From positions 7,574-71,573 of the forward strand of contig JAVBNO010000019.1 of NCBI GenBank assembly GCA_031551485.1: a stretch of 64,000 nt of DNA, written 5' to 3'. The DNA comes from Oscillospiraceae bacterium (GTDB lineage Bacteria; Bacillota; Clostridia; Oscillospirales; Ruminococcaceae). Shown here piece after piece: positions 30,152-41,303 of this stretch. Every line of letters begins with the position of its first letter. Position 1 is the first letter of the stretch. The notes below the pieces were generated by a model. The model was not told the DNA's origin. It was given only the letters and a program-made list of their open reading frames with translations, and searched no databases. The position numbers and the translations under genes were made by a program.

Positions 30152-30193
30152 TTTTCTTCTTTCCAGCAGCGAAAAATCCAGCGTATTTGAGAA

Positions 30194-30222
30194 TTGATTA
30201 TATTCCCCAAAAGGAATATAAT
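30194..30222 (+). promoter_or_regulatory. Sigma-70-type promoter for the HTH / membrane-LuxR transcription unit
   Basis: TTGATT-17 nt-TATAAT. The spacer contains the palindrome ATTCC-N6-GGAAT, a possible operator. Confidence 0.45.
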
Positions 30223-30244
30223 ATTGGTAATTGGAGGCTGCCAT

Positions 30245-30418
30245 ATGCAAACGTACATTTCAACATCAGAAGCCGCCGAAAAGTGGAGAATCCCACAACG
30301 CCGGGTGAAAGTCCTCTGTGCCCACAACAGGATTATCGGGGTTATGAGAGTGGGCAGAGTTTGGGCTATTCCCGCCAATGCCGAAAAACCCCCAGACGCG
30401 CGGAAGAAGAAGGACTGA
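30245..30418 (+). CDS. Small helix-turn-helix DNA-binding protein (57 aa)
   Basis: GGAGG ribosome-binding site. ISTSEAAEKWRIPQRRVKVLCAHNRIIGVMRVGRVWAIP is a typical short MerR/excisionase-like HTH. Lys-rich tail. Confidence 0.65.
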   Translation: MQTYISTSEAAEKWRIPQRRVKVLCAHNRIIGVMRVGRVWAIPANAEKPPDARKKKD

Positions 30419-30438
30419 ATATAGACCAAGAGGTGGGC

Positions 30439-31893
30439 ATGATGGAGGAAGAATCCAGCCATAGCCGCAATTACATATCCCATTTGCTATCATCCATCGG
30501 GAGACTTTGGAATGCACAGGAAACGCTGAATGTCAGAAACGTTCGGCTCAGCCATTTGCCATACTTTCTTGCGTTTCCGCTGGCGATGATCTTTGTCAAC
30601 ACGCAGGAGCACCTGTTTGCGGAGCAGGCGGGGCTGTTCAGCCTTAGCGGCGGATCAGTCGCCTTTATCGGGTACTGCCTCGGCGCCGCCCTGCTGTTTG
30701 TGTTCGCGCATACCGGGAACATGTCTAAGTTGTCAAAAGGATTTTCCGTTCTGGCACTGATCGGGTTCGTTTTGTGGCTCATCATGCCGGGCGGTATGCT
30801 TGGGCTGCTGTTCGCGTTTCTGTTCATGTTTGGTGTCGGCGGCTGCATGTCCAGCGGTACTTTCTCCTTTTGCTTTATTTTGAATAATGCTGAACGGTTT
30901 TGGGGGAGCGCCGCCGTCCTGCTTTTTCAGGGCCTCGCATTCGCGAACTCAGGAGGGACATTTGTGCCTTCCGCATTGATGAAGGTGTTCCTGATCATTA
31001 TAATCGCCGGCATAGTCATCTGCGCGTTTGCCTGCCGGACAGAGAGCTTTACCGAAGCGGGAAAACGGCCGAAAGGCCAGTTCGGCCCCGCCGTGTGGCT
31101 GATGTATTTTCTCTTTATGGCCTATTTCTACATCGAGTTCATCATAAGCCCTGTTCCCATTTTTCAAGGTGCCGGCGCCTTACTGTGGCGTGGCATGTTC
31201 TCGGTAACTGCGGTTTTTTTATGTGCCATTATCCAGGTATTATTGCGGCGCAGCCTTTGGACGTTGTGGAATCTGTCGTTTATCGCCGCCATCGGGTGCG
31301 TCGCTATAGCGCTTGCCAGCCAGCCGGAGGCTGCCAACGCGCTTCGCGGCCTGAAATCCGTCGGTTATTTCGCGTCATTTTACCTGATCGGGTGCGTCTC
31401 CAACCGGTTTTGCGATTTCCGCATGTTCAAGCGCCTGATATTCCTTGTGATGATGTCGTGCATCCCCATCTATATCGTGCCGGAACTCCTGTCCGGTACC
31501 GCTTACATGATACCTGCGGCAATAGGCCTGTCGAGCGCCCTGTTTGTCGTGTTCCTGATGCTGTCGCCGGCTTTCGCGAAACATCTGTTCTTCGCGGAAT
31601 GGTCGGAAAATCTGCGTATGCTCACCATGTCGGAAGCGCAGGCGCACGTCGAGAAAGCCGATTCGTTTGAAAAATTGAACCTCACACAGCGCGAAAAAGA
31701 AATAGCGGCATTGCTGCTACAGGGAATGGCAGTAAAAGAGCTTGCCGCCGAACTTGACATATCGTTTGACACAGCCAGATTTCACAACAAGAACCTGTAC
31801 AAAAAACTCGGTATCGTAAGCCGCTCGGAACTGTTTGCCCGCTTTGGTGCGGAAGCTAAAAATGCGGTTGAACAAACGCCGCGCCCCCAATAA
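30439..31893 (+). CDS. Polytopic membrane protein (~10-12 TM) with a C-terminal LuxR/FixJ-type HTH
   Basis: About 400 aa of hydrophobic helices, then LTQREKEIAALLLQGMAVKELAAELDISFDTARFHNKNLYKKLGI. The start at MMEEESS (ATG 30439, ribosome-binding site AGAGGTGGG) was chosen because the upstream part of the long ORF is occupied by the HTH gene in another frame. Confidence 0.8.
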   Translation: MMEEESSHSRNYISHLLSSIGRLWNAQETLNVRNVRLSHLPYFLAFPLAMIFVNTQEHLFAEQAGLFSLSGGSVAFIGYCLGAALLFVFAHTGNMSKLSKGFSVLALIGFVLWLIMPGGMLGLLFAFLFMFGVGGCMSSGTFSFCFILNNAERFWGSAAVLLFQGLAFANSGGTFVPSALMKVFLIIIIAGIVICAFACRTESFTEAGKRPKGQFGPAVWLMYFLFMAYFYIEFIISPVPIFQGAGALLWRGMFSVTAVFLCAIIQVLLRRSLWTLWNLSFIAAIGCVAIALASQPEAANALRGLKSVGYFASFYLIGCVSNRFCDFRMFKRLIFLVMMSCIPIYIVPELLSGTAYMIPAAIGLSSALFVVFLMLSPAFAKHLFFAEWSENLRMLTMSEAQAHVEKADSFEKLNLTQREKEIAALLLQGMAVKELAAELDISFDTARFHNKNLYKKLGIVSRSELFARFGAEAKNAVEQTPRPQ

Positions 31894-31926
31894 ACAGCAT
31901 CTCAAGATATAATCACACTGAGGATG

Positions 31927-31960
31927 ATACCCTGCCGCACCCAGGCAGGGTATTTTTTTT
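31927..31960 (+). terminator. Strong intrinsic terminator
   Basis: Stem ATACCCTGCC / GGCAGGGTAT followed by T8. Confidence 0.85.
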
Positions 31961-32034
31961 GCCCACCTACCCAAAGATGTAGCTATACAAATCGGTACTC
32001 CGCAGGTAAAAATGGAATTACGAGGAGGTGCCGT

Positions 32035-32271
32035 ATGGATATTTTGAAAAACGCTTCCGGGGAAAGCGTCACCTTGACACCGCGGGAGCGAGAGGTCTTT
32101 CAGCTTCTACTTAAAGGCATGAAGGAGAAAGAAATTGCGGGCGCGCTCCATATCAGCCGGTCGGGGGTCGGCTTCTTCACCAAAAGAATCTATAAGAAGC
32201 TCGACGTCAATTCAAAACCCGAGCTGATATTGCGCTACTACAATTTCGGCGGATCTAAAGAGGGGGAATAA
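32035..32271 (+). CDS. LuxR-family HTH 'solo' (78 aa; no receiver or ligand domain)
   Basis: GAGGAGG ribosome-binding site. LTPREREVFQLLLKGMKEKEIAGALHISRSGVGFFTKRIYKKLDV. The stop lies 2 nt before the giant ORF start. Confidence 0.8.
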   Translation: MDILKNASGESVTLTPREREVFQLLLKGMKEKEIAGALHISRSGVGFFTKRIYKKLDVNSKPELILRYYNFGGSKEGE

Positions 32272-32273
32272 TC

Positions 32274-35200
32274 GTGAAACAGTTGACAGGAGCCTGGAAC
32301 TGGATCCAAAAGCAATTCAAAGTACATACGACCAGATCATTGCTCATATCCATACCTGCCGCCGCACTCATCACAGCCGGGGTTTTATGGGCCTGCGGCA
32401 TTTTATCACTGGAATCGTGGAGCTATCTGCCTAATCGTGAATACATCCTCGCGCCGACGGAACCAGCAGAACCGCAGACACTGAATGAGCTGCTACACAG
32501 CGACATGCCTAGCATGGATACCCTTTTGCAAAACCCCTCCATTGCGCAGGAGCTGCTCAATGCCAAAACGCTAACCGACGTTGTGGATTCGCGGCTGGCC
32601 CTAAACAATCTTCATGATCTGGATGTTCAGCTTGCGGCCCAGCTTGCGGAGGATCCAGAAACCATTGATGTGGTCGATATGGAATCGGCACAGATCAATG
32701 CAGTATCGGCGAGCCATTCCGAGAAAGCTGTCATTACCTCTCTTGTGTATACACCGGGTGATCACAGCGCCGAGCAGCTTGCCACAACCAATGCCTTGCA
32801 AAATCAATACCAGACTATGGCGACGCTCAAAGCGGCCACCGGCCAGCTGCTCGCCCCCAAGGAATACGACGACCTTGTCGTGATGCCTATCGCCATGAAT
32901 ATGAAGGGTATCGTCGACGACGGTGAGGCGATGATTCACCTGCTCCCGGCGGGCGACTGGCTGCCGACAGATGGATATAAACTTTACCGCGAGGTAGACG
33001 GGCAAAGCGTACTGATCGCCGAAAATGTCGCATCGCCCAGTGCCGCGCTCGCCGGCGGCGTCGGGGGGGAACATGCTTTGAAGGTTCAGGCGCTATACAA
33101 GCAGGCCGAGCTTTCCGACGCCAAGCTCTCACAGCTCGGCATGACGGCCTCCCAGTTCCGCGAGACGGCCTACCGCATGGACACGGCGGAGAGCAAAACC
33201 CGTATCAGTGGCCAGAATAACTTTATGAGAATGCACGAACTGCTCATCACTGAGCCCAACGGCAATGAGCAGAAAATTCCCGAGACCGACCTGATGCTCG
33301 GCTCACCCGTTGTTGTAATGGGCAGGCAGGCAAACGGACTCTATCAAAGTGCCGCCGTTCAAAGCAGGATTTGGAAACAGTTCTCACTCATTCCCTCAGC
33401 GCTGCCTTCCGGCATTGACAGTATCCAGACACTGCCTAATGGCCAAGCAAAGTATAGGCTTGCCGCAGAGATCATGGCGGCGCGGCAGCAAATTTCCACC
33501 CTCAGCTTTGTGGACGATGCGTTTGCCGAGGAAGCCGGCTTTTTGATTCGCGACGATCTTTCGACGCTTGGCCTTGACGACGGAACAACGGTCACCTATC
33601 GCGTCGAAACGCCAGATCATCAAACCTCAACGCTCGAAATCGCCTACGGATATACCAATACACTGACAAAGCCGCAAGGCCTGATGGGCTACGGCATTGA
33701 CGGCAAGGTACCGCTGCGCTGGAATGCGGCGGAAAACCCGCAGGAGCGCGGCATCATCAGCGGGTATATGATCGAACGAAAACTCGACGGCGAAAGCAAG
33801 TTCACGGTGGTTAATGGGGAACCGGTCGCCATCACATACATACTCAACGAAAACGACATCTATTTCGAAACGCTGTCCTTTTACGAAGACGCCGTGGAAA
33901 ATGGAAGAACCGCCGAGTACCGCATCCGTTCTCTGGACATCTTCGGCCGCATGAGCAAGCCGTCGGATGTCATCAAGTTTAAAGTAGAGCAGGTCACCCC
34001 GCCTAACGCGCCGACGGTGAGCGCTCCGGTATTTTCCAGGGACGGCAGCAGCGCGTCCATCGGCGAAATGATAGCGGTACAAAATGCAATTAACCAAAAC
34101 AAAGGAAAAACGGGTATCGTGCTGCCGGTGTTCACCGATTCAGCGGACACTGTGCGCTTCACCATTTACCGTGCCGAAGCCGTGGGCGCGCGGCCCTTTG
34201 GTAAGCCGGTACCCATTGCCAACCTTTCGTATGACAACCCCAAACCAAAAGCGGAAGCAACTGCGTCTTCCGAGCCCTTGACGGAGCCCGTGCCGCAGGA
34301 GCAGGCGCAGACCGGGATTAAGAGGGTAAACGGCACGCAACAGACGCTGCTGCAGAACGCCGCGGCAAGCTATCCCGACCTGGTGTATTATGACGCGGAC
34401 ATCAAGGAAGGTGTCACCTACAAATACTGGGTTTCGGTTTGGGATAGCTGGAACAACGAGAGCGCGTGGTCGCAGTCGGTTTCGTATGGCGTAAGGACCG
34501 GGGCGGAACCCGCAACTCCCGCGGCGCTTAACGCCGCCATGCTCGTTCGGGAGCTCCCCGATCGCTCAAACGATCCGCCCGGATTGGTGAACGATTCCAC
34601 CGTGACGCTCGCCAATCTGGCGCAAATGCCGACAATGCCCGTTCGGAAGATCCCCGGCACCGATGCCGATACGGTCAAGCGGGCTGACGAGAGCGGTATC
34701 GCCATCGGCCATTTCATGAGTGTTGCCGGTATGCCGGATGTGATTGACAAGCAATTCGACAACCTGCCCGAGCAGAAGTATATCCATATGCTGGTGGCCG
34801 TGCGCGGCGAGGATGTGCAGCCTAACGGCGGCGCGTGGCTCCAGTGGCCCGCCTATTCCGGCGAAGGGCTGGGCGGATACGCGGTATACAGGCCCGTCTT
34901 TCCCGTAGGCGCATTACCCGATTTACAGCAGATGAGCCGCAGCGAGCTGATTCAGCTGGGCACATGGAAAAAAACGACAAGCAACACGGTTACGCAGAAT
35001 CAGCTCTTCGTCACCGGCCTGGACAAAACGCCGGGGAAAATCCATCTGTTTCTGATCTGCTTGCTTCCGGAAACGGAAGGAACGACAGCGTCGATAGAAA
35101 CTGATGGAAAAAAAGAAACCATTTTCGTTCCCGAGGGGCTGCAGCACGCGCAAGCGCCGATCTATTCCCCGCATCAAATCATTTTTGCTGAGGATTTGTA

Positions 35201-38200
35201 CTCCTATCGGGATTACTATCATGAAATCGAGGGACTTGAGTTAACGTGGGAGGCCGCGGCGGGAAATCCGGAATATGCCGTCTTCATGATTGAAGTTCCG
35301 CGAGAGTTGCCTTCATTAAGCATCGATAAATACAAACAAATGTCCGTTGAGGAGCTTTGGAACCTGGGCGGCTGGAAGCGAATGTTGACCACCTCCAAAA
35401 CAAACGCCGTGATCAGCGAAACCTCCTATTCGCATTTAGTGGATACGATGCCGATCATCGCCGTATGCGTACAGACGGGCAGTAAAAACATCACCGATAT
35501 CACGCGTGAGCAATCTGTCGACTTGAGTATTGACTTATTAACATCAAAGACTGCCCAAGAGATTCACGCGGGTTTTGTTTCGCTGGATTGGGATATTCCC
35601 GACGACCCGCAGGTGCAGTTCTACCGCGTCTACCGCGCGGAAGTGAACTCCTTCAAGACCCCGGTGGACGAATCAGCACTTGCGTGGACGCTGGTGGGGG
35701 ACCGGCTGAGTTCTCCCCAGTACACCGACCCGGTGGAGCAGAGCCGCGCACACTTCTATTACTACAAAGTCACATCGGTTTCACCTTGGGGCGTGGAGGC
35801 TGCGGCGGGAACGGTAAAACCGTTTCGCGTGCCGGCCACCAAGCCGCCGCAGACGCCTAATCTGCTTACGCCGCTGCAGAGTAAGGACGGCATAAAAGTC
35901 AACTTTGCCGCCGTGCCGTACTGCGATAAATATGTGATTTATCGGACAGCCATTACGAACGTAAGCGATGAGTATCTAACCAGGCTGAACAGCAATGTAA
36001 AGACCGCGTTATTTTCCAGCCCTTCGTTGGAGGATGAATTCCTCACCTCTCTATTGGGCAGCTCCATTAAGCTCAGCGGAAAGCCGGGGCTGCAAACACC
36101 GCTCAATGCCGCCAGCCGGTTCAAAACGCTACATTACGGAGACGCCAGCCGGGTATCGGGGCTTGATACCGGCACAAAGCTATCCACATACCAACAAATC
36201 CTCAATGACCTCGGCCCGCTTGCCCTGGCCGATTACCGCGATCTTTCGATTGAGATGATGAAACGGGTCACGTGGGAAAATATAGGTGAACTGCGCGTTG
36301 ATTATGAAACCGGCGCGGTGCTCGACCCGAATACTGGCAATCCTGTCGACCCAGTTGATCCCGCCACAGGTTTGCTCAAGCCGCTCTATTTCATTGATCC
36401 AACGCCCCAATACGGCATCATGTACTTATACACTGTGCAGGCCTGGAACGACGACGGCCTTGGTTCCACGCGGCCGGAACCCATTGAGGCGACACCAAGG
36501 CGAAGCGGGCCGTTCGATCCCATCAAGAATCTGAAAGGGGAGTGGGTGAACAAGCAGCCCCTGCTGACGTGGAACACGCCCAGGATGTCCACTCTCACGC
36601 CGGAGCGCTGCCTTGAGGAGACAGTCGGCTATATTGTCTACCGTTCCGACACCAAGAACGGCGAATACTATCAGGCAAGCCCCATGGTATTCGCGCCTAC
36701 ATGGACGGACAAAAATGCCGACCCGTATGCGTATAACTGGTATCGCATCAAGGTGTTGGATACCGGTGGCTACCTCAGCGAGTTTTCCGATCCGATACTG
36801 ATGCAAATGAATTTCGTCAGCACGGTAAAGCCCAAAATTCCGCATTTTTCGCTCGACCCTCTGCAGGCGCCGACAATTGCCTTTGAACGTAACCGCTATA
36901 CGGTCGCCTTGCGTATACCTTTTGAGGCGAGCTATACGCTTACAGGCACGGAGCCGATAGAGGTGACTGTTACGGCGGTGGATGCCAACGGATCGCCGGT
37001 GACAGGATTCACAGTGGACGCAACGGCGAAGAAGGTGCTTGCGGGGCCGGCATTGGGCGTCGGCACTTACAGCGTCACGGTCCAGGCAGAGAACGCGGCG
37101 GGCACGGACCAAAAGGATTTTGTGCTCACCGTTGGCGAACCGGAGGCGCGCACGCCACCGAAGCTGGCGACGCGCGACGATCAGTATACCTTTGTCTTTT
37201 CGCGCCCGGCCAGGCCGACGGGCACATTTGAAGAGCAGCTTGCCGCCACAGGCAGCATACCGCTGACCTGGTCGCTGGAGCCGTATGTGGAAGCCACGGG
37301 AATGCCAAGTACGGTGCCGGAAACGGTGAGCATAGATCAAAACGGCTTATTAAGCATCGAGCAGCAAACTGCCGCCGGCAGTTACTTCTTCTACGTCGTC
37401 GTCAGCAACGCTATGGGCAGCGACAAGCAGCTCATCCATATGGAAATCGCGAATGCTTCCGCGCTATCCCAAACATTCAGGCCAAGAGGGGTCTCTGTGT
37501 CAAGTGGGCGAAGTGAAGGAACGATGCCGCTGGTACAGCTTGTCGTGTCGGAACAGAAGCCAGCAGATAAAGGCGGCTATTACAGCGACAGCGCGGATTG
37601 CGCAGGCTTTACGCTGGCCGATGTCAGCCTTATCCCTTCCTCTGCAAGTGCGCCGCACTCGCCAGGCTATGTCGGCACCGCAACGCTGAACCTGGAAGGC
37701 GTGGAGCCAATCCCGGTGCACATTTACGGCGCGACCATGCAGACCACGTCGGACGGGGAAGTGATGACCGTCGGGACGGTCTATCTTGATCAGCCGGTGG
37801 TACTGAAGGCCACCGGTGTCACACTGGTCAGCATGGACATTAACCCGAAAAACGAGAAGCAGACCGTAAGCGGATATGTAAAAAGCACCAAGCCCAATCA
37901 AAACGTGATGGGCAGCACCTACGCCGTGGCGTTTACCGATGCCGTCCTGTCGCCGCAAGGCACTGTAAACGCCGCCGTCACGATACCCACGCTCAAGTAT
38001 GAACAATTCGTGTTGCACAACATCGACAACGTTCAGATCAGGCTGCCGAGCACGGCTTCAGATACGTTCTTCCTGATGGCCTCCTGCAAGCAAGTGACGA
38101 TGAAAGCGCCGCTGGAGACGCTCAGTAACGAGGGCATCACTTTTGGCGCAGGCTCGTACGGCTTTGACTTGGACGGCAAAATAAGCGGCACCATGGTGGC

Positions 38201-41200
38201 GGTGGAGCAGGAGCAATTCCTGCAACTGCTGGTGCCCGGCGGATCGGGCCTGCGCGTCAAGGCGAAGCTGACCTTCACGCACGGCGTGGCGCAGTCCGAC
38301 AGCTATATCCGTGGGCGGCTGATTCTGCCCTTCGAGCGGGCGGACGCAGTGGGCAGCGGCGTGCCTGGGGTCTATGCGGGTGTGCACCCCAAGACCAGCC
38401 TGATGGATGCGCTCGCCGATGTCAATCTGGGTGACGTACAGAGGGTTAAAGACCATCTGGCGCAGGGCGACCTTTCCATTCTCGACAGCCTCATACTCAA
38501 ATTTGGGCAAAATGTTCAGGAAAACGCGCTGCTCATCGTGCCGGGCGACAAGGCATTGCAGGATGAGTGCGGGTACGTGGACTTTAACGTCAAAAACTGG
38601 AGCGGTAAGGGCTTTATGGTGGAGTCCGCCGCGATGACGCCGACGCGCATGGCCGAGCGCGCCATGTCCATCAATCTGCAACGCAGTCAGGCCATCGTCA
38701 TCGCTCCTACCTCCGTCTCGATTGATCTCGATCGGGAGAAATTCCACCCCGTTGCGGGTGGCGGTGAGAACCCTCTCATACAGACACCCAAGGAGACGGA
38801 AAAACCATTCTGGGTCGGTTTGGTGATGAAAGGTGGTACGGTGGCGCTGCCGCCGGACTTTGTCGAGACGGCGGAGGGCGGCTCCATCCTCTTCGGCCTG
38901 GCCGAGGGCGAAATGATCTACGACCTCAACGGCTTTAGCTACCAAAACTATCTGTACAGCGATGACAAGGACGGCGTGCCGGCGCAGTTTGGAGACAGCC
39001 TGGGTGGTTTTGAGGATGTGCGCGTGTTCGACTGCCTGCTTGACATGTATGCCAACCGTGTCAACCTTGAGATCAATGCCAAGGTCAGGCTGGATCTATT
39101 CAACAACAACTGGGTCAATGCCAGGCTCTACACCAACAAGGAGAACAATGACGACGGCCAAAAAGGATCGTTCCTCTGCTCCGTCGCGCCCACGGTGATT
39201 GAAGGCGCCAACGGTGCGGGCGTCGATCTGAACATCGACGGCGGGTTTTTAAAGCCCGACGGGCTACACATTAACGGCAATATAATGGTGGACACCCCAG
39301 AAGTGCAAACCGACTCCGAAGAGCCGCTTGCCTTTATCGACATGATCGTGCCGTCCAAAGCCGAAATGACCAATCGCGAGAATAACAGGGAAAATATATG
39401 GGCCAACGTTACGCTCGACAAGCCGACCCCCATTACCTTTCAAGGCTTTTCCATGGAAATTCGGGCACTGGATTTGGAATACTCGGAAGCCAAGACAATT
39501 GAGCAGAAAAAAGCGGCCGGCACCGTCATCGCCCTTCCGCAGAGCGGCTATCCGACCTATTTATCGCTGCATGGGTCGACAGTATTGTCGGAAAACATAG
39601 CAATGGGGCAAGACACGACCGACACCGTCAAACTGGAATGCCGAAAATCGGACATTGTCCCGGTTGTGCTGTACGAAGAGTGCGCTTCGGTGCTGGACGC
39701 GAATTTCGACGACTGCATCAGCGTCAAGGGCAAACTGGTACCCAAGCTCACCGGGTCGGACTTGACCGTTCCAGGCGGCGCGAGTAATATGAGCGCCAAC
39801 ACAAAGGACACTGCCCCACATATCATGCTATTGTCCGCCGGAACTGCGCCCGCCGTCCCGGCCCTGCCGCAAATCCCCGCGCTCCCCAACGCCGAGAGCA
39901 TTTTGAAGGATGCGAAGGCCACTGCCGAAGAAAAGCTTGCGGCCTACAAAAAAGCGCTGAAAGACGAGATTGACCAGTACAAGAAAGCGGTTGAGGCAGA
40001 GCTGGCCAAATACAAGGACATGACGGAGGCGGAGGCGAAGAAGTATCGCGAAGCGGCCGAAAAACAGCTTGAGGAATATAAAGGCAAAGCTGTCGACGAG
40101 CTGGAAAAATACCTGGACATCACCCAGGAGGAACTTAAACAATACAAGGAAGAGCTGGAAAAAGAGCTCGGCGAGTACATCGATTTGGGCAAGCTTGGTG
40201 CGGGGCTCATTGAGTTTAACACAGAGCAGTTGGATCTGAACTACCTCAGCCAGCTCAAGTCGCTGCCGGTTGTGACCAAAACGCGCTTTGGGTATGACAT
40301 GGACAACGAGCGTTGCTATTTCGCTGTGGGCCTTATGCCCAAGAATAAGCCAGGAAGCAACAAGGAGACTATAGCAATCAACTTTGGCGCAGGCGATATC
40401 CGCAATTTCACCGGCATCGTCACCTATAACATGGTCGTAAAGCGCGACGCGCAGGGCAGACATGAGTTCCCTGCCCAGCCGGGAGAAATCGCCGCATTCA
40501 TCAAGAACATGTCGGTTTACAGGGAATCGGGCAGTACCTTCGCCGCCGGCATCCGGGGCACAATGAAAATCATCGGCTTTTGCGAGATCCGCGAGCTGTA
40601 CTTCGGCTTTGAGAAAGGCCCTATCATTAACGCAGACGGCGGTATCTACATTCCGCTGGATGTGGCAGGGATGATCAGTGGCGACGGCATGGAAAAGGTC
40701 GGTACGGTCGCTATCCTTTACGACCACCCCAACCGCTATTTCTCCTTCAGCATGACGCTTGACGGCATCGATCTAGTCGCGGCGAAAGTCAGCGGCAGTA
40801 TGGGATTTGAGTTCAGCCCGCACATGTTCGGCGTCTCGCTGGGCTATCCGGAGACCATGGCCGGCAACATTTCCATCTTCCGGTTCGGTGTTGGCATCGG
40901 GTTCCGCATCGACAGCGAGGAAGGCAACTACATCAGAGCCAAGCTGGAGGTCGGACTGCAAAAAGATGTGAAGGTCGCCATCGTCTACCTCAGCGGATAC
41001 CTCTACGCCGGAGCCGATGGAGGGTATTATTGGGGTGGCACGGATAAAGGCAATGGATTTTATCTGACTATTTACCTGAAAGGCGGCATAAAGGGCGGCA
41101 TTATGCTGGGCGAAGCTCGCTGGGATATCATCAAACTGATGCTCGACGCGCGGGGTACCATTAGCTCGCTTCCCCCGAGCAAAGACTGGAATCTGCACTG

Positions 41201-41303
41201 CTCGGCCAAGGTCAGCTACTGTCTCGACTTGTTCCTCTTCTCAATCGACGGCTCGGTCGAGGCCTCGTTTGATACGACAATAGCGGCGCCGCAGATAGTG
41301 TAA
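32274..41303 (+). CDS. Giant (3,009 aa) N-terminally anchored modular protein: FN3-like and Ig-like repeats, a large unassigned region, an 11-mer helical array and a beta-rich C-terminal domain
   Basis: Uninterrupted 9,030-nt ORF with a GTG start after AAAGAGGGGG. One N-terminal TM segment (SLLISIPAAALITAGVLWACGIL). Six FN3-type signature pairs (x-Y-R 'YRVYRAE'-like strand plus 'YxYxVxAxD..G..S' strand). Two Ig-like modules (36870-37450). Confidence 0.9.
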   Translation: MKQLTGAWNWIQKQFKVHTTRSLLISIPAAALITAGVLWACGILSLESWSYLPNREYILAPTEPAEPQTLNELLHSDMPSMDTLLQNPSIAQELLNAKTLTDVVDSRLALNNLHDLDVQLAAQLAEDPETIDVVDMESAQINAVSASHSEKAVITSLVYTPGDHSAEQLATTNALQNQYQTMATLKAATGQLLAPKEYDDLVVMPIAMNMKGIVDDGEAMIHLLPAGDWLPTDGYKLYREVDGQSVLIAENVASPSAALAGGVGGEHALKVQALYKQAELSDAKLSQLGMTASQFRETAYRMDTAESKTRISGQNNFMRMHELLITEPNGNEQKIPETDLMLGSPVVVMGRQANGLYQSAAVQSRIWKQFSLIPSALPSGIDSIQTLPNGQAKYRLAAEIMAARQQISTLSFVDDAFAEEAGFLIRDDLSTLGLDDGTTVTYRVETPDHQTSTLEIAYGYTNTLTKPQGLMGYGIDGKVPLRWNAAENPQERGIISGYMIERKLDGESKFTVVNGEPVAITYILNENDIYFETLSFYEDAVENGRTAEYRIRSLDIFGRMSKPSDVIKFKVEQVTPPNAPTVSAPVFSRDGSSASIGEMIAVQNAINQNKGKTGIVLPVFTDSADTVRFTIYRAEAVGARPFGKPVPIANLSYDNPKPKAEATASSEPLTEPVPQEQAQTGIKRVNGTQQTLLQNAAASYPDLVYYDADIKEGVTYKYWVSVWDSWNNESAWSQSVSYGVRTGAEPATPAALNAAMLVRELPDRSNDPPGLVNDSTVTLANLAQMPTMPVRKIPGTDADTVKRADESGIAIGHFMSVAGMPDVIDKQFDNLPEQKYIHMLVAVRGEDVQPNGGAWLQWPAYSGEGLGGYAVYRPVFPVGALPDLQQMSRSELIQLGTWKKTTSNTVTQNQLFVTGLDKTPGKIHLFLICLLPETEGTTASIETDGKKETIFVPEGLQHAQAPIYSPHQIIFAEDLYSYRDYYHEIEGLELTWEAAAGNPEYAVFMIEVPRELPSLSIDKYKQMSVEELWNLGGWKRMLTTSKTNAVISETSYSHLVDTMPIIAVCVQTGSKNITDITREQSVDLSIDLLTSKTAQEIHAGFVSLDWDIPDDPQVQFYRVYRAEVNSFKTPVDESALAWTLVGDRLSSPQYTDPVEQSRAHFYYYKVTSVSPWGVEAAAGTVKPFRVPATKPPQTPNLLTPLQSKDGIKVNFAAVPYCDKYVIYRTAITNVSDEYLTRLNSNVKTALFSSPSLEDEFLTSLLGSSIKLSGKPGLQTPLNAASRFKTLHYGDASRVSGLDTGTKLSTYQQILNDLGPLALADYRDLSIEMMKRVTWENIGELRVDYETGAVLDPNTGNPVDPVDPATGLLKPLYFIDPTPQYGIMYLYTVQAWNDDGLGSTRPEPIEATPRRSGPFDPIKNLKGEWVNKQPLLTWNTPRMSTLTPERCLEETVGYIVYRSDTKNGEYYQASPMVFAPTWTDKNADPYAYNWYRIKVLDTGGYLSEFSDPILMQMNFVSTVKPKIPHFSLDPLQAPTIAFERNRYTVALRIPFEASYTLTGTEPIEVTVTAVDANGSPVTGFTVDATAKKVLAGPALGVGTYSVTVQAENAAGTDQKDFVLTVGEPEARTPPKLATRDDQYTFVFSRPARPTGTFEEQLAATGSIPLTWSLEPYVEATGMPSTVPETVSIDQNGLLSIEQQTAAGSYFFYVVVSNAMGSDKQLIHMEIANASALSQTFRPRGVSVSSGRSEGTMPLVQLVVSEQKPADKGGYYSDSADCAGFTLADVSLIPSSASAPHSPGYVGTATLNLEGVEPIPVHIYGATMQTTSDGEVMTVGTVYLDQPVVLKATGVTLVSMDINPKNEKQTVSGYVKSTKPNQNVMGSTYAVAFTDAVLSPQGTVNAAVTIPTLKYEQFVLHNIDNVQIRLPSTASDTFFLMASCKQVTMKAPLETLSNEGITFGAGSYGFDLDGKISGTMVAVEQEQFLQLLVPGGSGLRVKAKLTFTHGVAQSDSYIRGRLILPFERADAVGSGVPGVYAGVHPKTSLMDALADVNLGDVQRVKDHLAQGDLSILDSLILKFGQNVQENALLIVPGDKALQDECGYVDFNVKNWSGKGFMVESAAMTPTRMAERAMSINLQRSQAIVIAPTSVSIDLDREKFHPVAGGGENPLIQTPKETEKPFWVGLVMKGGTVALPPDFVETAEGGSILFGLAEGEMIYDLNGFSYQNYLYSDDKDGVPAQFGDSLGGFEDVRVFDCLLDMYANRVNLEINAKVRLDLFNNNWVNARLYTNKENNDDGQKGSFLCSVAPTVIEGANGAGVDLNIDGGFLKPDGLHINGNIMVDTPEVQTDSEEPLAFIDMIVPSKAEMTNRENNRENIWANVTLDKPTPITFQGFSMEIRALDLEYSEAKTIEQKKAAGTVIALPQSGYPTYLSLHGSTVLSENIAMGQDTTDTVKLECRKSDIVPVVLYEECASVLDANFDDCISVKGKLVPKLTGSDLTVPGGASNMSANTKDTAPHIMLLSAGTAPAVPALPQIPALPNAESILKDAKATAEEKLAAYKKALKDEIDQYKKAVEAELAKYKDMTEAEAKKYREAAEKQLEEYKGKAVDELEKYLDITQEELKQYKEELEKELGEYIDLGKLGAGLIEFNTEQLDLNYLSQLKSLPVVTKTRFGYDMDNERCYFAVGLMPKNKPGSNKETIAINFGAGDIRNFTGIVTYNMVVKRDAQGRHEFPAQPGEIAAFIKNMSVYRESGSTFAAGIRGTMKIIGFCEIRELYFGFEKGPIINADGGIYIPLDVAGMISGDGMEKVGTVAILYDHPNRYFSFSMTLDGIDLVAAKVSGSMGFEFSPHMFGVSLGYPETMAGNISIFRFGVGIGFRIDSEEGNYIRAKLEVGLQKDVKVAIVYLSGYLYAGADGGYYWGGTDKGNGFYLTIYLKGGIKGGIMLGEARWDIIKLMLDARGTISSLPPSKDWNLHCSAKVSYCLDLFLFSIDGSVEASFDTTIAAPQIV
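39945..40178 (+). repeat. Seven exact 33-nt (11-codon) periods marked by eight Tyr codons inside the giant ORF
   Basis: TAC/TAT codons fall at 39945, 39978, 40011, 40044, 40077, 40110, 40143 and 40176. Units are Y-KKALKDEIDQ / Y-KKAVEAELAK / Y-KDMTEAEAKK / Y-REAAEKQLEE / Y-KGKAVDELEK / Y-LDITQEELKQ / Y-KEELEKELGE / Y. Confidence 0.95.

Follow-up and report, generated by a model that had tools for sequence, protein, structure and literature searches.

A tyrosine-marked, predicted helical insert in the hypervariable hinge of a giant clostridial protein, and its possible role as a spacer

The giant gene and its hinge

The window, by which we mean the whole stretch of 64,000 nucleotides that was analysed, contains a giant gene on the forward strand. 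Its 3009-aa product combines Fn3/Ig-like repeats with two conserved parts, a beta-rich module and a C-terminal domain, and is anchored in the membrane near its N-terminus (~aa 23-44). Against Pfam the protein gave sub-threshold matches only, and as a whole it matched no family in NCBIfam. Between the two conserved parts lies a hinge that carries an array of predicted helices marked by Tyr. The features are listed below by position in the window, strand and content; model numbering refers to the two AlphaFold2 runs described in the next section.

32274..41303, +: giant gene, 3009 aa, a single open frame (ORF list and translation)
39747..39854, +: low-complexity segment that opens the hypervariable hinge, aa 2492-2527, LTGSDLTVPGGASNMSANTKDT..., predicted to be disordered (pLDDT <50 at model residues 604-637)
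39855..39893, +: Pro-rich motif VPALPQIPALPNA, aa 2528-2540 (LPxLPxxP conserved in 5/5 insert-bearing proteins)
39921..40010, +: N-cap T2550-A-E-E and predicted helix A (aa 2551-2579), with the conserved pair Tyr 2558/2569, 11 apart (helix 661-689 in the large model, 24-52 in the small model)
40011..40025, +: predicted loop 1, YKDMT, aa 2580-2584, lineage-specific Tyr 2580 and N-cap Thr 2584 (helix break in both models)
40026..40112, +: predicted helix B, aa 2585-2613, with the conserved pair Tyr 2591/2602, last residue the lineage-specific Tyr 2613 (helix 695-723 in the large model, 58-86 in the small model)
40113..40124, +: predicted loop 2, LDIT, aa 2614-2617, N-cap Thr 2617 in T-Q-E-E (both models; indel site among relatives)
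40125..40181, +: predicted helix C, aa 2618-2636, with the conserved pair Tyr 2624/2635 (helix 728-746 in the large model, 91-109 in the small model)
40182..40202, +: Gly-rich hinge DLGKLGA, aa 2637-2643, followed by the conserved strand GLIEF (pLDDT drops to ~56)
40203..41300, +: conserved C-terminal domain, aa 2644-3009, modelled as ~20 long strands in an all-beta meander (DSSP strands 755-1113 in large-model numbering, pLDDT ~80-88)

We found 41 full-length homologues, every one of them giant and from uncultured Clostridia/Bacillota. This host family is in our opinion a more interesting object than the array itself: its members are rare giants of 2500-3500 aa, anchored at the N-terminus, in uncultured anaerobic Clostridia, and their conserved C-terminal module is without a Pfam family. 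The C-terminal domain gave zero Pfam matches at E≤10 and has 67 representatives among 1.84 billion proteins. The structural matches of the module, to outer-membrane barrels and lipid-handling beta sheets, are weak: Foldseek returned weak matches to outer-membrane barrels for the C-terminal domain, and to porins, LptD and ApoB100 for the beta module adjoining the helical array. The gene neighbourhood of the relative P0004 had no context in common with that of the 3009-aa gene. Upstream in P0004 there is a Ser/Thr kinase with MORN repeats; in the 64-kb window there are LuxR genes instead.

Tyrosine periodicity and predicted helices

The sequence-only reading had described eight Tyr codons at an exact 33-nt step, and we recovered all of them at 39945+33n (n=0-7) in the translated 32274-41303 frame. 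They encode Tyr 2558, 2569, 2580, 2591, 2602, 2613, 2624 and 2635 (2558+11n), with no further Tyr in between. For a protein of this size with 4.05 % Tyr, chance would yield ~2e-8 runs of eight in-phase Tyr. The array lies where it had been placed, between the Pro-rich linker and the terminal beta-rich domain. Its units are YKKALKDEIDQ, YKKAVEAELAK, YKDMTEAEAKK and YREAAEKQLEE (units 1-4) and YKGKAVDELEK, YLDITQEELKQ, YKEELEKELGE and YIDLGKLGAGL (units 5-8). Besides the Tyr at position 1 (8/8), they share Lys or Arg at position 2 (6/8), Glu or Gln at position 8 (7/8) and Leu, Ile or Ala at position 9 (8/8). Identity between units was 52 % for nucleotides and 35 % for amino acids, compared with 27 % for in-frame 33-mers drawn at random from this gene, and Tandem Repeats Finder detected no repeats in 39800-40300 at a minimum score of 30. 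Both results agree with the earlier view that the units are old and diverged and do not stem from recent slippage.

A periodicity of 11/3 and not of heptads had also been claimed, and this was confirmed. On three scales, the hydrophobic moment of the 88-aa core peaked at 97.5 degrees, equivalent to 3.69 residues per turn (range 3.67-3.70), and the value at 3.5 was about half of the peak. The 11/3 moment was reached by 30, 5 and 1 of 5000 shuffled sequences on the three scales, respectively. Hydrophobic residues recur every 11 residues as in a hendecad core: large hydrophobics occupied 77 % of the positions in a 4-4-3 hendecad register (0.77), as against 43 % in the best heptad a/d register (0.43), and the occupancy of the a-d-e-h hendecad core was 0.63. 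Moment analysis, register occupancy and the helices predicted by AlphaFold2 agree that the segment is helical and amphipathic.

We ran AlphaFold2 twice, with aa 1891-3009 and 39 homologues (run 1) and with the module alone and two relatives (run 2). The helix boundaries were identical, namely 2551-2579, 2585-2613 and 2618-2636 (29, 29 and 19 residues). The pLDDT of the module was 73-87, and the pTM of the isolated module was 0.62; in the isolated-module run, for which the alignment held only three sequences, one of the five models was confident (mean pLDDT 73.8; the others 44-56). Since both runs broke the helix at YKDMT and LDIT, one continuous hendecad helix is probably not formed. Thr-x-x-Glu N-capping boxes stand at the breaks, and it is at these sites that relatives have indels or are rich in Gly and Asn. 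S/T-x-x-E is the classical helix N-capping box, and the three Thr present in the helical region (2550, 2584 and 2617) all have Glu at +3 and stand one residue before a predicted helix start. The predicted helix-plus-turn units are 33-34 residues each, equal to three hendecads. The Tyr series looks like an unbroken run of eight because of these units together with a Tyr in each turn. An unbroken run made up of three helix-turn units and two lineage-specific residues is therefore no proof of a continuous rod. The spacing of the eight-Tyr array is exact, but the array is not homogeneous: Tyr 2580 and Tyr 2613 fall in predicted loops and are missing from all relatives.

Distribution and conservation of the insert

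In most of the ~85 family members the hinge measures 5-12 aa, and in a subgroup 20-52 aa. A hinge of 136-165 aa with helices occurs in five sequences only. P0044 falls inside the P0003/P0004 clade (100/100 support) and has a Gly-rich linker in place of the helices.

In the insert-bearing sequences the invariant positions of the helices include the seam residues. In alignment A1, the invariant columns are Y28, A31, E35, I36 and Y39 in helix A, Y61, A65 and L69 in helix B (with Tyr or Phe at column 72) and Y94 in helix C (with Tyr or Phe at column 105); L102 and I106 are further invariant seam positions, and G114, L115, E117 and F118 are invariant in the region of the Gly-rich hinge and GLIEF. 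Within the Pro-rich motif, which was modelled with a pLDDT of ~78 and without regular secondary structure, L1, P2, P5 and P8 are invariant in alignments A1 and A3. At loop 1 the relatives have NDNKN, GGMEN, NSAKN or KG followed by three gap positions, and none has Tyr. Loop 2 is marked by gaps of 7, 7 and 4 residues (A1 columns 81-87) and by an extra 11-aa unit in L005.

Six Tyr are conserved in relatives, two per helix and 11 apart; the turn residues Tyr 2580 and Tyr 2613 are unique to the 3009-aa protein. The Tyr spacings in the four helix-bearing relatives are 11-22-11-15-11, 11-22-11-18-11 or 11-30-12-3-11-11. The 11-residue spacing is thus conserved in homologues only by half: helix-bearing relatives keep it as pairs within helices, and most family members are without any helix at this site.

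The helical insert was probably gained once. We considered separate origins, as a tree of the C-terminal domain places the carriers in three spots, but its backbone is not resolved and the AU test does not reject a single clade (p=0.096). The protein's own genome yielded neither a paralogue of the module nor a donor for it (next-best match E=0.16). The sole outside match to the array was P0097 (E=8e-5), a 281-aa protein that is unrelated and carries ADPTQKELREY in tandem, which we attribute to periodicity and composition and not to homology. Searches of the literature on Tyr-marked hendecads and bacterial 11-residue surface repeats gave no description of this module.

Spacer, stalk, rod or lipid-binding element

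We propose, with moderate confidence, that the Tyr-marked segment forms three helices that serve as a spacer, ~4-5 nm in size and dispensable, in front of the conserved C-terminal beta domain. As helical core it would belong to an accessory module of ~115 aa (aa 2528-2643), in which the conserved Pro-rich lead-in is followed by three amphipathic helices connected by turns of 4-5 residues. Each helix would carry a narrow conserved seam of Tyr, Ala/Leu, Leu/Ile and Tyr in 3-4-4 (hendecad) spacing. Packed together, the three seams could build a three-helix bundle, antiparallel in up-down-up order, whose helices would be almost straight. Three helices in ~100 aa with short turns are present in both models, and the antiparallel packing is inferred. 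The insertion site in this rare family of giant clostridial surface proteins would be the hypervariable hinge, with the conserved beta-rich module on one side and the conserved C-terminal beta domain on the other, and the bundle may act there as a semi-rigid spacer that pushes the C-terminal domain ~4-5 nm outward. The module would have no lipid binding of its own, and the core function of the family would be independent of it.

The hendecad seams could instead join two to four chains in a straight or slightly right-handed coiled coil, an oligomerisation stalk that we regard as unlikely. Several giant proteins would consequently be bundled just below their C-terminal beta domains, in the way in which chains are bundled by the stalks of trimeric autotransporters and by those that precede the barrels in SlpA/OmpM-type proteins. 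The array has the 11/3 periodicity and conserved seam of a stalk, and a seam density of 3/11 that resembles heptad a/d cores, but a conserved Glu (position 8) lies within the seam arc. As in the right-handed hendecad coiled coils of tetrabrachion and of segments of trimeric autotransporter stalks, the seam is conserved and the hydrophobic periodicity is 3.67-3.70 residues per turn; unlike these coiled coils, the array has a three-position seam with Glu instead of a full a-d-e-h core, and capping boxes and predicted turns every 33-34 residues. Helix continuity over the hendecads was not seen in the monomer AlphaFold2 models, which gave the pieces of 29, 29 and 19 residues. The indels of relatives (3, 4, 7 and 11 residues) are of kinds that coiled coils tolerate, continuous ones included. 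In SlpA a beta barrel comes after a coiled-coil stalk, and the top Foldseek match of the 1119-residue (large) model was trimeric SlpA (8ae1_A, E=1e-4), although with a TM-score of only 0.12. With SlpA/OmpM-type proteins (PDB 8ae1) the 3009-aa protein shares a helical segment directly before a large all-beta meander domain, but it is without an SLH domain, its hosts are assigned to Clostridia, in which an outer membrane is normally absent, and most members of its family are without the helices. The 5-12 residues found here in most members indicate that the module is unnecessary for the family's assembly, and the flexible Gly-rich linker of P0044 likewise argues against a stalk. A single continuous, highly charged helix of ~13-15 nm, that is, a SAH-like stiff monomeric rod with i to i+4 salt bridges, is in our estimate distinctly improbable. 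The segment does have the dense network of such helices, with 48 % charged residues and 17 opposite-charge i,i+4 pairs compared with 9.8±2.5 in shuffles (P ~0.004), but its conserved Tyr/Leu/Ala hydrophobic seam (Y, A, L/I, Y invariant in relatives) is atypical of E/K-type single helices. The three capping boxes, Gly at 2604 and 2633, the two breaks in each AlphaFold2 run and GG or NDN at the first break in relatives also speak against a rod. Nevertheless, there is counter-evidence to the turns: YKDMT contains neither Gly nor Pro, the Tyr phase runs unbroken across both predicted turns, and the gap is exactly 22 where relatives have 15 or 18. If these are loops, in-phase Tyr in both and an exact 22-residue gap would be an odd coincidence (rough estimate <1 %), so that in this lineage the helices may run on without a break. 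Moreover, Gly 2604 lies inside helix B and relatives have Gly or Asn at the same column, so that the second turn may be misplaced.

A lipid-surface element had been suggested for the array, and our data disfavour it. The segment would be a 3-11 amphipathic helix at the distal tip that is unfolded or bundled in solution and opens onto a membrane or lipid surface, perhaps in concert with the barrel-like C-terminal domain; we judge this very improbable. The 11/3 periodicity of such helices is present, as is an interfacial Tyr in every repeat, but hydrophobicity, moment and charge were not compatible with adsorption. Mean hydrophobicity (~0.05) is near zero, the net charge is -6 and the narrow non-polar seam covers 3/11 positions with the conserved Glu (position 8) inside its arc, which argues against lipid binding. 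The HeliQuest-type discriminant was <0.68 in 13/15 windows and negative across the C-terminal half. AlphaFold2 predicted a folded helical unit without lipid, and most family members are without the module. Resemblance to apolipoproteins was seen as sub-threshold Pfam Apolipoprotein matches (PF01442; 18.8 bits with the whole protein and 22.3 bits with the segment, against a gathering cut-off of 90) and as matches to ApoE and ApoA-I chains (E 0.06-1.5), next to the weak Foldseek matches of the adjoining beta module. With the isolated segment, Pfam at E≤10 returned only compositional noise of coiled-coil type. PDB sequence matches of the segment (colicin E1 with E=0.046, then ApoE, vimentin and haemagglutinin HA2) were non-significant helical look-alikes. 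Class-A amphipathic helices have a broad non-polar face, basic interface residues and Pro-punctuated 11/22-mers; the array, with its seam of 3/11 positions, its net charge of -6 and no Pro, does not correspond to this. The array shares 11-residue periodicity, a 33-residue super-period and a weak profile similarity with the 11-mers of apolipoproteins, perilipin and LEA proteins, but differs in its narrow non-polar face, negative net charge, absence of Pro punctuation and predicted folding without lipid. The 11-mer helix of perilipin-4 was no longer targeted to lipid droplets once its net charge per 33-mer had been changed from +1 to -1, and a length of 66 aa did not suffice for binding (PMC5889406). 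The most far-reaching version, an apolipoprotein-like bundle that opens on a foreign membrane and forms, jointly with the porin/LptD-like C-terminal domain, a membrane-contact or insertion device at the fibre tip, appears to us more improbable still. If true, a fibre of 3000 aa, anchored to the cell, would bear a membrane-contact element at its tip in bacteria without an outer membrane of their own, which Clostridia normally lack, and the perfected 11-residue Tyr phase would be an adaptation for lying flat on lipid.

The three-helix spacer that we favour may be compared with spectrin-type repeats (~106 aa) and with the Ebh-type helical-bundle repeats of giant surface proteins in Gram-positive bacteria. 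The module is similar to them in its size of ~100 aa, in having three amphipathic helices of ~20-30 residues with short turns, in the aromatic residues of its seam and in its position as a spacer between extracellular domains. Unlike these repeats, it has a seam in 3-4-4 hendecad and not heptad spacing, occurs as a single copy and not as a tandem rod, is limited to five sequences and has no sequence or profile match to such families. With the isolated module Foldseek returned nothing at E≤0.001, and TM-scores were ~0.3; the top match was a designed single-chain antiparallel three-helix bundle (9rgx_B), which was not significant (E=1).

As a small dispensable helical spacer that belongs to no described family, the array alone would matter little. 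It does provide a caution that perfect periodic markers can mislead. The hinge, moreover, separates two parts of the conserved C-terminal module that fold independently, and shows where one can cut or shorten the protein.

Tyrosine array and host gene

The array lies in a giant gene (32274-41303, forward strand; a single 9030-nt open frame, 3009 aa) whose product begins with a hydrophobic membrane anchor followed by Fn3/Ig-like repeats. Matches of the protein to Pfam (Invasin_D3 and Big_1) were all sub-threshold, and no family was found in NCBIfam. The source genome (2.18-Mb assembly, 89 contigs, 96% complete) carries one copy of the gene and no paralogue of the module, i.e. the array plus its lead-in (aa 2528-2643). 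The window looks like an ordinary bacterial chromosome; its other genes encode sugar-binding proteins, a histidine kinase, LuxR-type regulators and an MFS transporter. Upstream of the relative P0004 lies a gene (L004:5142-7505) for a MORN-repeat Ser/Thr kinase, while the window has LuxR-type regulators at 30187-32271; conservation thus does not extend to the regulatory context of the giant gene.

Translation confirmed the eight Tyr codons at exact 33-nt spacing (39945+33n, n=0-7; residues 2558-2635), and there is no Tyr between them. As Tyr accounts for 4.05% of the residues, the chance expectation for eight-Tyr in-phase runs is ~2×10−8. The array columns read Y, K/R, x, small or hydrophobic, L/V/A/T, x, x, E, L/I/A, x, x. 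On each of three scales, the hydrophobic-moment analysis proposed in the sequence-only reading had its peak at 3.69 residues per turn (88-aa core); 30, 5 and 1 of 5000 shuffles equalled or exceeded the moment at 11/3, and at 3.5 residues per turn the moment had dropped to about half of its peak value. Large hydrophobic residues occupied 77% of positions in the 4-4-3 register; the heptad a/d register that fitted best reached 43%. The suggested 11-residue rather than heptad amphipathic periodicity was thus borne out, and so was the view that the units do not stem from recent slippage: Tandem Repeats Finder detected no DNA repeat at the array, and the units share 52% nucleotide identity. Their amino-acid identity is 35% (27% for random in-frame 33-mers). 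The array repeats are old.

Predicted layout of the module

AlphaFold2 was run on aa 1891-3009 with 39 homologues (mean pLDDT 74) and on the isolated module with two relatives (best model: pLDDT 73.8, pTM 0.62; four of five models were of low confidence). Both runs predicted the same layout (all on the forward strand):

aa 2494-2527, +, disordered stretch
between the disordered stretch and the first helix, +, Pro-rich lead-in
aa 2551-2579, +, predicted helix 1
aa 2585-2613, +, predicted helix 2
aa 2618-2636, +, predicted helix 3
YKDMT (aa 2580-2584) and LDIT (aa 2614-2617), +, predicted turns between the helices
after helix 3, +, Gly-rich hinge, then beta domain

Of the hendecad array originally proposed, the amphipathic hendecad helices stand; a single continuous array is improbable, as the two predicted turns interrupt it.

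The helical region contains exactly three Thr (2550, 2584 and 2617), each one residue ahead of a predicted helix start and each with Glu at +3 (TAEE, TEAE, TQEE). The S/T-x-x-E motif is the classical helix N-capping box. The inserts of this protein and of its insert-bearing relatives (proteins P0003, P0004 and P0048 and locus L005) share 38-44% identity, an LPxLPxxP lead-in and the seam residues, and on this comparison are clearly homologous to one another. The relatives' helix breakers (GGMEN, NDNKN, NSAKN) and gaps of 4-7 residues coincide with the two predicted turns, and L005 has an extra 11-aa unit, also at predicted-turn sites. Tyr spacings are 11-22-11-15-11 in P0003 and P0004, 11-22-11-18-11 in P0048 and 11-30-12-3-11-11 in L005. 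Six Tyr are common to the relatives, two per helix and 11 apart, and Tyr 2580 and 2613, in the turns, occur in this protein only. The invariant positions (Y, A, (E)I, Y; Y, A, L, Y/F; Y, L, Y/F, I) form the seam, a narrow non-polar helix face. Capping boxes, indel and helix-breaker sites and the conserved-Tyr pattern are three independent fits to the three-helix layout.

Each helix-plus-turn unit comprises 33-34 residues, or three hendecads, which is why the Tyr phase continues across the turns. Window positions 39921-40181 thereby form a super-repeat of three such units, each beginning T-x-x-E. Comparing the opening 19 residues of units 2 and 3 by eye gives ~53% identity (TEAEAKKYREAAEKQLEEY versus TQEELKQYKEELEKELGEY). 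The repeat pattern suggests that the module arose via duplication of one helix unit. In L005:2480-2872 (Oscillospiraceae MAG, JAVBOJ010000131.1), an 11-aa unit is cleanly duplicated in the last helix (YKKELSETLEK / YKKELMKELEK); the module therefore gains length in whole hendecads.

Proposed fold and alternatives

We infer both the packing of the helices and a spacer role. The seam, with three positions in 11, has about the density of a heptad a/d core and would suit helix-helix packing. With turns of 4-5 residues, the simplest fold would be an up-down-up three-helix bundle, ~4-5 nm long with its ends at opposite poles, and the module would serve as an accessory spacer, moving the C-terminal domain farther out. 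The best Foldseek match of the isolated-module model, a designed single-chain antiparallel three-helix bundle, was non-significant. We regard such a bundle as an even bet: confidence stays at about one half because the in-phase Tyr of the turns and the exact 22-residue gap are the main unexplained observation. The module has no described family, yet it behaves as a known kind, a helical spacer domain. Since most relatives have six-residue joins and one close relative a Gly-rich tether in its place, it is not needed for the family's core function.

The unexplained Tyr phase and gap speak for a continuous charged single helix: if the turns were true loops, it would be an odd coincidence that both carry a Tyr in phase and that the gap is exactly 22 residues, against 15 or 18 in the relatives; i,i+4 salt-bridge pairs are also enriched (17 versus 9.8±2.5). 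We nevertheless consider a continuous helix probably not the case. An oligomerising stalk is weakened by the predicted turns and by the absence of the module from most of the family.

The sequence-only reading had also offered lipid contact. In its favour are the 11/3 periodicity, the Tyr residues at the interface and the nature of the adjoining beta module. However, mean hydrophobicity is 0.05 and net charge −6, the non-polar arc contains Glu, 13 of 15 windows have a lipid-binding discriminant below 0.68, Pfam Apolipoprotein scored 19-22 bits against a cut-off of 90, and AlphaFold2 predicts a folded state without lipid. For perilipin 4, targeting was lost at a net charge of −1 per 33-mer, and a stretch of 66 aa failed to bind (PMC5889406); these charge and length results likewise count against lipid contact. 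The array is probably not a lipid-binding helix.

Family, hinge and C-terminal region

A search of 5.8 billion proteins turned up 41 relatives, each a giant protein (1858-3469 aa) from uncultured Clostridia/Bacillota; scanning 1.84 billion cluster representatives exhaustively with HMMER yielded only 67 family members. A one-genome-per-species search gave 50 family loci, all in metagenome-derived assemblies (49 labelled as MAGs, one metagenome chromosome) and all labelled within Clostridia/Bacillota (Oscillospiraceae, Saccharofermentanales, Tissierellia, Christensenella, Caldicoprobacterales, Lachnospiraceae and others). Among 100 genomes drawn from the source organism's own family, only one had a clear copy. 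Several MAGs hold two diverged copies of the giant gene (L008/L031, L021/L041, L047/L054); in Bacillota bacterium AnMBR.bin336, two lie ~4 kb apart on one contig.

The hinge, measured from the end of the preceding domain (...VLVPK) to the start of the C-terminal domain (GLVEF...), is hypervariable, and the array is rare even inside its family.

Table. Hinge classes among family members
Length; character; members
5-12 aa; e.g. KLQNAG; most members
20-52 aa; low complexity, then a short helix in most; a subgroup
~67 aa; Gly-rich; P0044
136-165 aa; with helices; this protein, P0003, P0004, P0048 and locus L005 (Oscillospiraceae MAG)

In the close relative P0044, a 670-aa fragment, a Gly-rich low-complexity hinge (GGSGGGGAYGGSGGSGGSGGGNGGSG...) stands where P0003 and P0004 have the helical module (compared with window 39747-40202). 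A subgroup of family loci (L006, L007, L010, L011, L012, L014, L015, L040, L042) has hinges of ~45-52 aa that finish, immediately before GLIEF, with a short conserved helix of KEAEKKISQIEQ type; this may represent either a forerunner or a relic of the longer helical insert. Beyond the five carriers, the array matched one protein only, the unrelated repeat protein P0097 (E=8×10−5). This small, membrane-anchored protein (281 aa, representative library) has about eight tandem copies of ADPTQKELREY, which resembles array unit 6 (YLDITQEELKQ).

A tree of the C-terminal domain placed the carriers in three places on a backbone without resolution. In our reading, the insert was gained once and afterwards replaced at least once, because the inserts are homologous, constraining the carriers to one clade was not rejected (AU p=0.096) and P0044, whose hinge is Gly-rich, clusters with P0003 and P0004 (support 100/100).

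Window 37944-41300 (aa 1891-3009) encodes a conserved C-terminal module without a Pfam family. Its 1119-residue model consists of a long beta-rich module and a C-terminal meander (40203-41300) of ~20 long predicted strands. Foldseek matched this model to SlpA of Deinococcus (8ae1, E=1×10−4), LptD, porins (probability up to 0.96, TM ~0.37 on target), usher proteins, ApoB100 and microsomal triglyceride transfer protein (MTP). These matches to outer-membrane barrels and to ApoB100/MTP are weak and consistent in kind; as TM-scores are low (0.1-0.37), the likeness is a lead, not a finding. Matches of the outer-membrane-barrel type are odd for bacteria labelled Clostridia.
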